Source of the DNA: Candidatus Doudnabacteria bacterium
GTDB taxonomy: Bacteria > Patescibacteriota > Doudnabacteria > UBA920 > O2-02-FULL-48-8
Reading direction: 5' to 3'
Assembly (NCBI GenBank): GCA_037200925.1
Contig: JBBCGO010000001.1
Coordinates: forward strand, 9,552 to 73,551
Length of the DNA: 64,000 bases
Shown piece after piece: positions 17,645 to 22,109 of the stretch. Position 1 is the stretch's first letter; each line of letters starts with the position of its first letter. The notes beneath the pieces are model-generated. The model had not been told where the DNA came from. It was given only the letters and a program-made list of their open reading frames with translations, and made no database searches. The position numbers and the translations under genes are program-made.

Positions 17645-18370
17645 ATGATAAAACTTTCAGTCGTGATTCCGGCCTACAATGAGGAACACCGCATTGCGCG
17701 AACATTGCTCGATGTTGACGGCTATCTGGAAAAACAAAACTATGAGTACGAAATCATCGTCGTAGACAACAATAGTAACGATAAGACATCCGAAATCGTT
17801 AAAAATCTGGAGAGCACATCCGTTCAGAATGCCCGCGTGATCACGGAAACCATAAAAGGCAAGGGTGCTGCTGTGCGGCGCGGTATCTTTGACTCAAAAG
17901 GCGAGTTCACCGTATTCATGGATGCGGATAACGCGACCCCGATCCGAGAGATCGAAAAATTCTGGCCCTATCTTGAGTCGGGGATAGAAGTTGTGATCGG
18001 TTCGCGCTACCAGGACCCGTCAAGCGTCAAGATCAAGCAGCCTTTCTATAAAGTTCTTTTGTCGCGCGCAAGCAACATTTTGATCCAGATCGTGCTCATA
18101 CCCCACATCAAAGACACGCAGTGCGGCTTCAAGGCTTTCAAGACCTCGGCGGCAAAAGAGATCTTCAAAAATTTGACCATCTTCGGCTGGGCATTCGACA
18201 TGGAATTGCTTGCCATAGCTCTAAGATTGAGTTATAGAATAAAGGAAGTGCCGGTTTCGTGGGAAGAACACGGCGGCAGCCACGTTCCCCTTAAAGCCTA
18301 TCTGCAATCTTTGGTTGATCTGTTCAGAATAAAATGGAAAGCCTTAACCGGAAAATATTCGGGTAAATGA
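17645..18370 (+). CDS. family 2 glycosyltransferase (dolichol-phosphate mannosyltransferase-like)
   Basis: LSVVIPAYNEE.., VVDNNSNDKT and DAD motifs of GT2. An extended -10 (TGGTATAAT) lies upstream. Confidence 0.8.
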   Translation: MIKLSVVIPAYNEEHRIARTLLDVDGYLEKQNYEYEIIVVDNNSNDKTSEIVKNLESTSVQNARVITETIKGKGAAVRRGIFDSKGEFTVFMDADNATPIREIEKFWPYLESGIEVVIGSRYQDPSSVKIKQPFYKVLLSRASNILIQIVLIPHIKDTQCGFKAFKTSAAKEIFKNLTIFGWAFDMELLAIALRLSYRIKEVPVSWEEHGGSHVPLKAYLQSLVDLFRIKWKALTGKYSGK

Positions 18371-20361
18371 CACAACGAAACTATACAATCTTTGCAAAGA
18401 TCTTAATCGGCATTTTGGTGCCAGTTTTTTTATTCATATTGCTCCCGAAGTTTTCGCAAGCTTCCAGTCCAAGCACCATTCAGATAACTTTCCAGGTCAA
18501 AACAGGAGCTAATGCAAATTCGATCTTTACCCGCCATAAGCTCAAACCCACTTTATTGTTTGCCAACATATTCAGAGCGCAAATTCCGGCTGATCAGCTG
18601 ATCGCAATGCAGCATGATCCGGATGTGAATTACGCGCAGATCGACCATCGCTTGCAGGTCTTTGCAGTTACGACTTCCGATCCTTTTTTTACCGCTGACG
18701 CCTCGGACATCGACAAACAGTGGTATCTGCCAAAGATCAAGGTTCCTGATGCATGGGGTTATACGAAAGGTTTGAACAGCGTAATTGTCGCGGTCATTGA
18801 TACGGGAATTCACGCAAGCCATGTCGAGCTCAACGATGGCCGGGTGATCGGCGGGTTTAATGTCCTGACCAACCAGCCTATATTGGCCAATACAAATTCA
18901 GACGACAATGGCCATGGGACCTCGGTGGCCGGCGTCATCGGCGCTATTCCCAACAATGTCATCGGGATCGCCGGAATTGATTGGAATATAAAATTGATGC
19001 CTGTGAAAGCCATCGGTGCGGATGGCAGCGGCGATACGTCTGCGGTTGCCGGAGGGATCGTCTGGGCCACGGACCACGGCGCGAATATCATCAACCTGAG
19101 TTTGGGCGGCAGCGGATTCAACGCTGACCTGACCTTAAGCAATGCAATTACATATGCCTACAACCACGGGGTGTTGATCGTGTCCGCTGCGGGAAATGAC
19201 CAAGCCGATCACGGTCTGAATTTGGATACCTCAGTTGTTTATCCGGTATGCGCTGACAATGGCAGCAATATGGTTTTGGGAGTGGCTGCCACTGACAGCA
19301 ATGATCTGAAAGCGGATTTTTCCAACTTTGGCCATAACTGCGTGGACATCTCAGCTCCGGGAGAAAGAATTATAACCACGGCTTACTTGCCCAATAATCC
19401 GTCTGATAATGTTTTGATCTACGGCTCCGGCACTTCGTTGGCCGCACCCATCGTGTCGGGAGTCGCAGCGCTGCTAAAATCGACCAATGTGAATTTATCT
19501 AACGTTGATCTGCAGAATATCCTGATGAAAACTTCAGACCCGATAGACGCTCTGAACCAAACCAGTTGTTTGGGCGGTTCGTGCAACGGATTTTTGGGCA
19601 AAGGCAGGATCAATGCCTTATCTTCTGTTATGCCGCAGCCGTTCTTGGACGGCAGTCTGTTTCGTGAAGCTGCGACCGGCAATATTTATTTCATTGAGAA
19701 CAAAACCAAGCGTCTGGTATCAGCTTTTGTCATGACCCAGCGGGGCTTTGATACCACAAGTATCATGAATGAATTTAATAATCAACTGGCTAGTTTGCCG
19801 ACCGGTAGCCCTTTGCCGCCGGTGGACGGCACACTGATCATGTCTTCCGGAGATCCGCAAGTTTATGTTCTTTACCAGGGATTGAAGCGGCCTGTGACAT
19901 ATCTTGTCTTTGTTTCTAGGGGCTATAGGTTTTCGGATATCCAGATGCTTTCGCCGGCAGAGGTCGCAAACTACGCTTCAGGTGATTGGTATTGGCCGCC
20001 GGACGGAACAATGGTTTTAGTCCAAGGTAATCCTCGGGTGTTTGTCATGGACCAGCAGGTTGCCCGGCCGGTAACATTTTTCGTGTTCACTCAAAGGCAT
20101 TTATCATTCGCTAAGGTGGTGAAAGTTACGGCTGATGAGTTTTCCCACATCCCGCCCGCGCCGGATCAGTATTGGCTTTCTCCTGTTGAAGGTACGCTGG
20201 TCAAGTCGGATATTTTCCCGGGAATTTACGTGATCGAAAACGGCGTTCGAAGATTACTGTCATTTCAGGCGTTTACCGCCAGAGGCTATCAATTCGCCAG
20301 TGTGAAAACTTTGCCGGAACTGGAAGTTGAGGTGATAACCCCGGGGTTGCCGATCGAATAA
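18367..20361 (+). CDS. secreted subtilisin-like serine protease (S8) with four C-terminal ~40-aa repeats
   Basis: Catalytic Asp (VAVIDTGI), His (DNGHGTSVAG) and Ser (GTSLAAPIVSG). Signal peptide. The C-terminal repeats read x-I-Y-x-I-E/D-x-x-x-K/R-R/H-x-x-S-x-x-x-F... and occur 4 times. Confidence 0.85.
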   Translation: MTQRNYTIFAKILIGILVPVFLFILLPKFSQASSPSTIQITFQVKTGANANSIFTRHKLKPTLLFANIFRAQIPADQLIAMQHDPDVNYAQIDHRLQVFAVTTSDPFFTADASDIDKQWYLPKIKVPDAWGYTKGLNSVIVAVIDTGIHASHVELNDGRVIGGFNVLTNQPILANTNSDDNGHGTSVAGVIGAIPNNVIGIAGIDWNIKLMPVKAIGADGSGDTSAVAGGIVWATDHGANIINLSLGGSGFNADLTLSNAITYAYNHGVLIVSAAGNDQADHGLNLDTSVVYPVCADNGSNMVLGVAATDSNDLKADFSNFGHNCVDISAPGERIITTAYLPNNPSDNVLIYGSGTSLAAPIVSGVAALLKSTNVNLSNVDLQNILMKTSDPIDALNQTSCLGGSCNGFLGKGRINALSSVMPQPFLDGSLFREAATGNIYFIENKTKRLVSAFVMTQRGFDTTSIMNEFNNQLASLPTGSPLPPVDGTLIMSSGDPQVYVLYQGLKRPVTYLVFVSRGYRFSDIQMLSPAEVANYASGDWYWPPDGTMVLVQGNPRVFVMDQQVARPVTFFVFTQRHLSFAKVVKVTADEFSHIPPAPDQYWLSPVEGTLVKSDIFPGIYVIENGVRRLLSFQAFTARGYQFASVKTLPELEVEVITPGLPIE

Positions 20362-20378: not shown

Positions 20379-22109
20379 ATGATAAATTATAAATTTCAAA
20401 TTGCAAAGATCCTCCTGATAATTTTCTGCCTGGGATTGGTTTTGCAAGCGCCGCTGGTGGCTTTTGCCCAAGGCCCTGTTGATCCGGCGTTCAATCCGGG
20501 ACTGCTGATCCCGGATGAGGCGTTTTCGGATGTCGGGACCTTCGGTTCGGCCGCCGGCATCCAGAAATTTTTGGAGCTGAAAGGTTCGGTCTTGGCCAAT
20601 ACCTCGCCCGATTTTTTGGTGAAATTGAAAGAGCCGGATGCGTTGACGAAAGTTGGCTTGGAAGATCCGGAGCCAAGCTTAACCCGCCTTCGGTCTGCAG
20701 CAGAACTGATCTACGACGCGGGCACCAAATGGGGACTGAATCCGCAGGTGCTTTTGGTGATCGTACAGAAGGAACAAAGCCTGATCACCGGAACTTTCAG
20801 TTCAACGGCGAGTTTGCAGACGGCGCTAGACCATGCAGCCGGATTTGGCTGCCCGGATGACCAGCCCTGCGGCGCAATTTTTACCGGATTTTATAAACAG
20901 CTGTTCGGCGCTTTTGATTCCGACAACAGCCGCTGGCTTGGTACAGCCGCATCACTGATCAAATCCTTCAACGCCCAGATCGACGGCCTGAGGGTCGGCC
21001 GGGGACCTGCCGTAGATGCAAACAACCACACGGGAGGCGCGGTCGTGAAGACCGCCAGAAAAGGCGATACGGTTATTTTTGACAACACCTTGGGCGGATA
21101 TGATGGGGTGCAGCCTTCTCAAACCGTGACTTTGCAGAATTTCGCGACAACGGCTTTATACCGCTACACGCCGCACGTGTTCAACGGCAATTATAATTTT
21201 TGGAAATTCTATACGGCGTGGTTCAAGTACCCCAACGGCACCATCATCCAGAAGGTCGGGGACACGCTTCAGTATGTGATCGACAACGGCACGAAACGGC
21301 CGTTCTCAAGCTTTGTCGCCACCCAGCGCAAGCTGAACCTGACCAATGTCATCGCAGTGTCGCAGACAGAATTTGATTCGTATCCGCTGGAAAAACCCAT
21401 GCCGCCTCTGGACGGTACGCTGATCAAAGGCAGCACTGATGCCACTATCTTCCTGGTCCAGGATTCAGACAAGCACCCGATCTCGGCTCCGGTATTTACA
21501 CAGCACAAATATTCTTTCGCCAAAGTTATTACATTGCCGCAGGCAGAAGTGGATTCTTACGAGGCGGGCAGTTACGTGACCCCGCTGAATGGCACATTGA
21601 TCAAAGGCCAGACCGATGCCACGATATATATTATTGACGATGAATTGAAGCGGCCGATCTCCGCGGATATTTTCAAGGTCCTCAAGCTGTCAACCAAAAA
21701 GATCATGAAACTTTCCGACGCGGAAGTCACCAGCATTCCTTTGGGTCCTTATCTGACTCCGCCGGAAAAAACCGCATTCAAGACGAAGACTGACCCTACG
21801 ATCTGGTGGTATAAAGACAATCTCAAACATTCGGTTTCGGCTTTCGTGTTCAAGCAAAGAGGCGTGAAGAATTTTCCGCTTTTGACTTTGTCAGACACGG
21901 AGGTAACCTCTATCCCCACGGGTGATCCTCTGCCGCCAAATGACGGAACAGTGTTCAAAGGCGACCAATCCTCGGCAATTTACAAAATGGTCGGCGGCTT
22001 AAAGCACATGTTCTCCGCCGCATCTTATAAGAAAGCCAAGTATCCAAAAGCGACTGTGCTGCCGCAGGCAGAAGTGGATCAGTATGAGCCGGGAGATGAT
22101 ATACAATAA
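20379..22109 (+). CDS. secreted protein of unknown function with five copies of the same ~40-aa repeat
   Basis: Signal peptide and an uncharacterised 280-aa N-terminal domain. Five repeats follow, homologous to those of the S8 protease and the giant protein (each ends ..LSxAEV). Confidence 0.55.
   Translation: MINYKFQIAKILLIIFCLGLVLQAPLVAFAQGPVDPAFNPGLLIPDEAFSDVGTFGSAAGIQKFLELKGSVLANTSPDFLVKLKEPDALTKVGLEDPEPSLTRLRSAAELIYDAGTKWGLNPQVLLVIVQKEQSLITGTFSSTASLQTALDHAAGFGCPDDQPCGAIFTGFYKQLFGAFDSDNSRWLGTAASLIKSFNAQIDGLRVGRGPAVDANNHTGGAVVKTARKGDTVIFDNTLGGYDGVQPSQTVTLQNFATTALYRYTPHVFNGNYNFWKFYTAWFKYPNGTIIQKVGDTLQYVIDNGTKRPFSSFVATQRKLNLTNVIAVSQTEFDSYPLEKPMPPLDGTLIKGSTDATIFLVQDSDKHPISAPVFTQHKYSFAKVITLPQAEVDSYEAGSYVTPLNGTLIKGQTDATIYIIDDELKRPISADIFKVLKLSTKKIMKLSDAEVTSIPLGPYLTPPEKTAFKTKTDPTIWWYKDNLKHSVSAFVFKQRGVKNFPLLTLSDTEVTSIPTGDPLPPNDGTVFKGDQSSAIYKMVGGLKHMFSAASYKKAKYPKATVLPQAEVDQYEPGDDIQ

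Follow-up and report, generated by a model that had tools for sequence, protein, structure and literature searches.

Several families of short repeats, LysM, SH3b, CW_binding_1 (choline-binding), CW_binding_2, SLH, GW, SPOR and PG_binding_1, are carried in multiple copies at one terminus by secreted hydrolases, proteases and adhesins, and the LysM, SH3b, SLH and choline-binding repeats retain proteins on the surface in other bacteria. PlyCB, the wall-binding subunit of the streptococcal phage lysin PlyC (PDB 4F87), is small, built of sheet and helix, and multivalent through the assembly of eight separate chains into a ring. EccB, a fixed subunit of the type VII secretion machine (Pfam PF05108 region; PDB 4KK7, 3X3M, 5CYU, 6SGY and 7NP7), has an N-terminal membrane helix and an extracytoplasmic part in which a six-stranded core domain stands between the four repeats R1-R4, whose unit of about 55 amino acids (aa) is a four-stranded sheet with two helices and a proline-rich strand. 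In EccB1 the R1-R4 units consist of four strands and two helices, R1 is most similar to R3, and the binding of peptidoglycan by the repeats has been put forward only as a hypothesis (PMC4769845). The present work concerns a tandem repeat at the C-termini of three secreted proteins encoded in a stretch of 64,000 nucleotides (nt), referred to below as the window, from contig JBBCGO010000001.1 of a Candidatus Doudnabacteria bacterium (GenBank assembly GCA_037200925.1). This repeat is very probably homologous to the EccB repeats, and it probably forms a portable module by which proteins are directed to the wall of the cell.

The three genes which carry the repeat, here called A, B and C, are listed below with their repeat units, the borders of which were set by anchoring on a recurring D/N-G-T-L motif; detection was by hidden Markov models (HMMs) of the units except where stated otherwise.

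18367 to 20361, forward strand: gene A, a secreted S8 (thermitase/subtilisin-like) protease of 664 aa (Pfam Peptidase_S8, E=8.5e-50)
19648 to 20358, forward strand: repeat module of A, four units running up to the last residue (unit HMMs), at aa 428-486 (nt 19648-19824), 487-545 (nt 19825-20001), 546-607 (nt 20002-20187) and 608-664 (nt 20188-20358)
20379 to 22109, forward strand: gene B, a secreted 576-aa protein with a signal peptide, an N-terminal domain at aa ~30-285 and then the repeats
21234 to 22106, forward strand: repeat module of B, five units (unit HMMs), at aa 286-344 (nt 21234-21410), 345-403 (nt 21411-21587), 404-462 (nt 21588-21764), 463-521 (nt 21765-21941) and 522-576 (nt 21942-22106)
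49450 to 54600, forward strand: gene C, an adhesin-like surface protein of 1716 aa (translation, NCBIfam)
53902 to 54597, forward strand: repeat module of C, four units of a divergent subtype (external profile, E=5.8e-37), at aa 1485-1543 (nt 53902-54078), 1544-1606 (nt 54079-54267), 1607-1663 (nt 54268-54438) and 1664-1716 (nt 54439-54597)

The shared C-terminal repeat which the initial annotation of this DNA had described in the S8 protease, its neighbour and the giant surface protein is borne out, with four, five and four copies as claimed there. Its period, which had been put at about 40 aa, is actually 57-62 aa in A, B and C and comprises a conserved core of ~45 aa, with which the motif written out at that time agrees, and a proline-rich linker, which that motif omits; the linker sequences PLPPV, PMPPL and LTPP are seen in the units. 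The interval 18367-22109, to which the repeat had been assigned, does contain the repeats of A and B but spans both whole genes. The units of the three proteins align over ~59 columns at 9-50% pairwise identity, and the copies are, to judge from their sequences, old and divergent; in the consensus, aromatic and basic residues stand at conserved positions. Among the 806 six-frame open reading frames (ORFs) of the window, an HMM made from the units of A alone finds B at E=5.8e-50 and one made from the units of B alone finds A at E=2e-41, E values by which the match between the two modules is far above chance. C is linked to A and B only weakly by HMMs made from the window (3e-5 to 2e-3), but a profile of 81 units from other organisms, from which the window units were excluded and C-like units were filtered by a heuristic and possibly leaky motif filter, matches C at 5.8e-37, with 4 of the 4 C units individually significant, and matches each A unit at an independent E value of 1e-11 to 2e-18. 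The repeat HMM and Pfam search that the initial annotation had called for were run: unit HMMs detect the repeat in no ORF of the window besides A, B and C, and no Pfam family falls on it.

Neither Pfam nor NCBIfam has any match to the repeats of A, B and C even at E<=1, and CW_binding_1, CW_binding_2, SH3b, LysM, SLH, PG_binding and SPOR have no Pfam match anywhere in the three proteins (hmmscan, E<=1). The candidate identification as a classic wall-binding repeat was rejected on the absence of any Pfam or NCBIfam match; the classic repeats also differ from the module in fold. The earlier statement that no named repeat was recognised thus holds for these two databases, but the repeat is very probably homologous to the solved repeats R1-R4 of EccB. 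The outcome named at the start as one that would refute the original interpretation, that the repeat belongs to a wall-binding family whose function is established, was not observed, CW_binding and SH3b being unmatched and the peptidoglycan-binding role of the EccB repeats being hypothetical.

The homology to EccB is carried by predicted structures and by profile comparisons. AlphaFold2 models B, with 80 orthologues, at a predicted local distance difference test (pLDDT) score of 92.1, and it models the C module, the four-repeat segment used for the structure prediction that had been asked for at the outset, with 65 homologues at pLDDT 96.2 and a predicted template modelling (pTM) score of 0.89, as a four-unit module which is predicted to be compact. 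In these models every unit of B and C is strand-strand-strand-helix-strand-helix (DSSP), which with the proline-rich linkers gives the units of both proteins the EccB repeat fold. When the models are compared with the PDB by Foldseek, the top 11 matches of B are all EccB1, EccB3 or EccB5 (E=5.7e-7 to 5.5e-4), the top 9 matches of the C module are all EccB (E=2.2e-4 to 3.1e-3), and EccB1, EccB3 and EccB5 are the only significant matches of either model. Superposed globally on EccB, the models score poorly (TM about 0.1-0.2), since in EccB a core domain intervenes and the units are differently arranged.

At the level of profiles, PF05108 (T7SS_ESX1_EccB) matches relatives of A, B and C precisely on one repeat unit and above its gathering score: in the carrier P0166, aa 180-244 align with profile positions 183-247 at 61.4 bits (cutoff 27), and the carriers P0228 and P0224 reach 44.9 and 30.7 bits against the same cutoff. 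The part of the model which is matched corresponds to the EccB repeat R2. These three carriers are not EccB proteins (one, for example, has CHAP and repeats), and since they lie above the gathering threshold, automatic annotation would label them as components of type VII secretion. A 149-unit profile searched against PDB sequences aligns end to end with R1 of Mycobacterium tuberculosis EccB1 at a weak hmmsearch E of 0.3-0.4, and also drew spurious matches to designed leucine-rich-repeat and BurrH repeat proteins; comparison of the unit profile with EccB1 R1 by hhalign gives a probability of 79% and E=1.6e-5. A first unit profile found nothing among PDB sequences. A, B and C themselves have no match to PF05108 at E<=1, so that their homology to EccB is transitive, passing through structure and profile evidence, and on that evidence we hold it to be very probable.

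The likeness to EccB includes the four units per protein, the position outside the cytoplasm of a cell whose envelope is of Gram-positive type, and the similarity of unit 1 to unit 3, which parallels that of R1 to R3. Unit size, fold, the presence of four copies and the resemblance of unit 1 to unit 3 suggest a common four-unit ancestor for EccB and the free-standing module. A, B and C are nevertheless not EccB proteins: their signal peptides look cleavable, and their units, unlike those of EccB, follow one another directly in tandem without a core domain, at the C-termini of soluble secreted enzymes and adhesins. The surroundings differ as well, since no ESX genes lie near A and B, whose neighbours are genes for a glycosyltransferase, an epimerase, a kinase and ABC-2 transporters.

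The extent of the family was determined by an exhaustive HMMER search with a 13-unit profile against 1.84 billion cluster representatives, which matched 5,091 of them at E<=1e-3 and 2,294 at E<=1e-10; a word-indexed protein search with the unit profile had returned 6 fragments only, and the exhaustive search was used in its place. Units were mapped on the best 150 of the 5,091 matches, a list that is skewed to many-copy proteins. The repeats end no more than 15 aa from the C-terminus in 115 of these 150 carriers, the copy number ranges from 3 to 16, and uninterrupted blocks of exactly four units are the commonest, with 86 blocks compared with 3-27 at each of the other sizes. Across 75 four-unit blocks that lie at the terminus, a unit at a given position finds its best match in the unit at the same position of another protein in 55-72% of comparisons, where 25% would be expected by chance. 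Such position-specific similarity, together with the four-unit blocks, marks the module as an old four-unit entity that moves between proteins as one piece. Within these blocks the closest pairs of units are 1 with 3 and 2 with 4, so that the four-unit module is itself apparently a duplicated pair.

The proteins to which the module is attached were surveyed by a Pfam scan of 71 carriers, in which 46 families were matched and the 25 most frequent listed. The partners are SpoIID (12 carriers), Amidase_2 (9), fn3 (7), Big_7 (6), PF05108 (6) and Peptidase_S8 (5), and more rarely Peptidase_M23 (3), Polysacc_deac_1 (2), Glucosaminidase (2), CHAP (1) and LGFP (1), along with various immunoglobulin-like (Ig-like) domains; the classic wall-binding repeats are absent from the 25 most frequent families. 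A local iterative search found a SpoIID-, Amidase_2- or CHAP-like domain in 26 of the 150 best carriers and an S8 domain in 13. By these counts the combination of S8 protease and module seen in A is a recurrent architecture, and wall-active enzymes are prominent among the partners that can be annotated. Amidases, M23, CHAP and glucosaminidase are also the fusion partners of the classic wall-targeting repeats. About 9 of the 30 carriers which were looked up have a named organism, and they belong to Doudnabacteria, Portnoybacteria, Wirthbacteria, Parcubacteria and Actinomycetota, the Actinomycetota carriers being annotated as SpoIID/LytB proteins. The phyla of the Candidate Phyla Radiation (CPR) and the Actinomycetota are generally regarded as having a Gram-positive-type (single-membrane) envelope.

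Relatives also occur in phages of Actinomycetota. A Foldseek search of predicted viral structures matched two units to a 115-aa Rhodococcus phage protein (Weasels2 A0A1I9SA71; E=7e-6, TM 0.79) and also matched a 102-aa protein of the Streptomyces phage LukeCage. By tblastn, the repeats of an Actinomycetota carrier find the same gene in 73 Streptomyces phages (E about 1e-4), while the repeats of B have no tblastn match in phage genomes. The LukeCage gene, gene 67, lies between the gene of a large minor tail protein and the holin gene, and its translation shows the repeat motif. The tblastn match to gene 67 (6001-6393 of locus L004) starts 84 nt upstream of the annotated start, which may mean that the annotation cuts the gene short and that it in fact encodes two complete units. 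These hypothetical proteins thus carry the repeat by both sequence and structure, but they have one or two units only, stand alone at ~100 aa, and have no annotated function.

The interpretation that we favour, with a probability of roughly 0.6, is that the module is a portable, non-covalent cell-wall-targeting module. On this interpretation the repeat is the domain that makes up the periplasmic part of actinobacterial EccB, here free-standing and in tandem. Its ~57-aa unit is predicted to fold into a small four-stranded sheet and two short helices followed by the proline-rich linker, and four units to pack into a compact module of ~230 aa at the extreme C-terminus of secreted proteins, inherited and shuffled as a single piece. 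The module would bind non-covalently to a component of the monoderm wall, either peptidoglycan or a wall-associated glycopolymer, and the S8 protease, B and the giant adhesin-like protein C would thereby be retained on the cell surface. What leads to non-covalent wall targeting is that the module is terminal and multivalent, that its carriers have signal peptides and a Gram-positive-type envelope, that it is fused to hydrolases, proteases and adhesins, and that it is kin to a domain of EccB situated in the Actinomycetota wall compartment. The position of the A-B pair in a cell-envelope neighbourhood (epimerase, glycosyltransferase, DUF11 surface protein and ABC-2 exporters) and that of the one- or two-unit phage proteins between tail genes and holin were also counted for an association with the wall. 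The initial annotation had proposed a surface anchor or ligand-binding module, perhaps wall-binding, and this is the best-supported interpretation, given the C-terminal position on proteins with signal peptides, the four-unit terminal blocks and the fusions to peptidoglycan enzymes; the ligand, the binding itself and the retention function are what we infer, indirectly, from the repeats and their fold, the terminal four-unit layout and the partner domains, all of which the analysis establishes, and from the very probable homology to EccB. PlyCB offers a parallel, since it too is a small unit working in multiple copies and small stand-alone phage proteins also exist in the repeat family, but its copies are separate chains, whereas those of the module are tandem repeats in one chain, and it has no detected sequence similarity to the repeat.

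Several observations weigh against wall targeting. Most carriers have no peptidoglycan enzyme domain, and the list of the best 150 has the skew mentioned above; PlyCB is not among the top 50 Foldseek matches of the B or the C model; and the link of A, B and C to EccB lacks a direct PF05108 match. In ESX-5, moreover, R1 and R4 are the main dimerisation contacts of EccB5, whose assembly forms a chamber with, and is capped by, the subtilase MycP5 (PMC8131196), so that the known role of the fold is protein-protein contact. If the module did what the EccB repeats do there, it would be an assembly or scaffold domain which oligomerises its carriers or docks them onto an envelope protein. The adjacent and syntenic S8 protease and B, which carry the same module, would suit such a co-assembly, and so would the compactness predicted for the four-unit module (pTM 0.89). 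However, the module is found on hundreds of unrelated domains, many of them stand-alone peptidoglycan hydrolases, a pattern that marks a targeting domain whose shared ligand is not a protein, A is thermitase-like and no mycosin, and there are no type VII secretion genes in the window, so we consider a scaffold role improbable.

The sequence offers no feature by which a wall of the bacterium's own and a foreign wall could be told apart. The source organism is a CPR bacterium, and cultivated CPR bacteria are episymbionts, a lifestyle which makes binding to a partner wall a live variant: the module would then bind the surface of a partner or host cell, and through it the protease, the adhesin and lytic enzymes would be brought to the envelope of the host. 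The distribution of the family across CPR bacteria, Actinomycetota and actinophages would fit this, as would the wall-degrading enzymes that make up many of the fusion partners and the adhesin-like character of C. The Actinomycetota, however, themselves carry fusions of SpoIID with the module, which are ordinary housekeeping architectures of wall remodelling, and we rate direction to a host envelope as unlikely. Less credible still is a module without any ligand of its own, in which the repeats serve as an inert spacer or stalk, or as a chaperone segment or pro-domain at the C-terminus. C-terminal extensions are common in subtilases, and the copy number does vary from 3 to 16, but sequence is conserved position by position across phyla, block size is fixed at four, aromatic and basic consensus positions are kept, and the module is terminal rather than between domains, all of which argue for a specific binding function.

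Outside the repeats, A, B and C all have N-termini that resemble signal peptides when read by eye from the sequence; that of A, read in this way and with no predictor, is MTQRNYTIFAKILIGILVPVFLFILLPKFSQA/SS. In A, the Peptidase_S8 domain at aa 138-390 precedes the repeat module. The best NCBIfam match of A is the type VII mycosin model TIGR03921, and MycP binds EccB in ESX-5, which is why the possibility that A is a mycosin fused to the domain of its EccB partner was tested. It was rejected: the match scores 164.3 bits against a cutoff of 278.75, and its nearest relatives among PDB sequences are AK.1 protease, thermitase and subtilisins, with mycosin absent from the best 60 listed.

B has no Pfam or NCBIfam match. 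Its sequence is 100% identical to that of a hypothetical protein from a Candidatus Doudnabacteria metagenome-assembled genome in NCBI. It has more than 100 orthologues, of which those named are mostly Candidatus Doudnabacteria, and the more distant of them carry six units; alignment places the extra unit of B, relative to four-unit modules, as an insertion between the canonical units 3 and 4. The N-terminal domain of B (window 20466-21233, aa ~30-285) is strongly conserved, with an invariant K131-E132-Q133 and a TPHVFNGNYNFW motif. A profile of B orthologues for this domain found only noise among PDB sequences. The AlphaFold2 model of the domain has weak Foldseek matches to the lytic transglycosylases SltB1, Slt35 and SltB2 (E ~0.6-1.3) and to pneumococcal LytB, and the domain may be a new lysozyme-like wall hydrolase.

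C consists of long N-terminal repeats of ~100 aa, an Ig-like/Ca_tandemer region, a poly-Gly linker and the repeat module. Within the N-terminal 1450 aa (window 49495-53850), the imperfect ~100-aa repeats (TIPAGLAANATDHSITIDGV...TFTRTATGTAGN) match no family and are followed by the Ig-like/Ca_tandemer region at aa 1031-1128, and an 11-residue poly-Gly run (GGGGGGGGGGGSG) stands immediately before the module. C has no Pfam match; in NCBIfam it matches Ca_tandemer at E=1.1e-10 but below the cutoff of that model, and also Ig_like_ice. The TTG at 49450, listed as its start, is probably wrong, and the true start is probably the ATG at 49495, which precedes a good signal peptide. The C type of module recurs as a block in ~70 homologues, mostly CPR proteins of ~400 aa.

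Upstream of A lie genes for a family-2 glycosyltransferase (GT2), for an APH-type kinase and a sugar epimerase, for a small protein whose C-terminus bears a sortase-like signal and for a DUF11 surface protein, and downstream of A and B are the ABC-2 exporters. The nearest of these genes is the following.

17645 to 18370, forward strand: GT2 gene (Pfam Glycos_transf_2, E=5e-30), the stop of which overlaps the start of A

The gene order GT2, S8 protease with module, B with module is kept around B orthologues of 66% and 44% identity (loci L001-L003), and in L003 the set is flanked by a polysaccharide flippase and a family-4 glycosyltransferase gene. This conserved order and these flanks hint at a glycosylated wall polymer as the ligand. 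The small protein upstream (14744-15370, 208 aa), which overlaps at its start with the end of the DUF11 surface protein (11584-14751, 1055 aa), has an N-terminal membrane or signal segment and a C-terminal end ...YKAPVTGPAEDLGLWLAGIATVSFFGIKKYRTNKV with the features of a sortase-type sorting signal, namely a PVTG motif, a run of hydrophobic residues and a tail of basic ones; from this signal, the organism seems to use covalent surface anchoring as well. Elsewhere in the window, a bacterial class A RNase P RNA is found at 57677-58046 with 101.5 bits, barely over the gathering score of 100, and no tRNA genes were found in the whole 64 kilobases.

The fold and a homologous domain are already known from EccB. 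No description was found, in the literature searched, in Pfam or in NCBIfam, of a very large family of portable four-unit modules, C-terminal in position, that spans CPR bacteria, Actinomycetota and actinophages and is tied to wall enzymes. It is conceivable, and we suggest it tentatively as something short of an even chance, that the free-standing four-unit module is the ancestral and widespread form behind EccB, which would consist of two pairs of units that gained a core sheet between them, and that it constitutes an undescribed major wall-targeting system of CPR bacteria and Actinomycetota. The repeat family merits a Pfam entry of its own, since PF05108 now draws in some of its members, which would wrongly be labelled as belonging to type VII secretion.

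If the module is such an ancestral wall-targeting system, its systematic fusions to SpoIID, amidase, M23 and CHAP domains would be the first functional evidence that EccB repeats contact peptidoglycan. The presence of a portable EccB-type domain on peptidoglycan hydrolases of Actinomycetota and CPR bacteria is the first comparative support for the peptidoglycan-binding hypothesis of EccB; the module also offers simple soluble constructs for testing the function of the EccB repeats. For CPR biology, it would supply a trackable tag for surface-retained proteins. Patescibacteria have tiny genomes rich in unannotated secreted proteins, and the organisation of their surface is largely obscure. With a recognisable C-terminal tag on thousands of proteins, sequence would suffice to predict the surface-retained proteome, in which proteases, wall hydrolases and giant adhesins are included.

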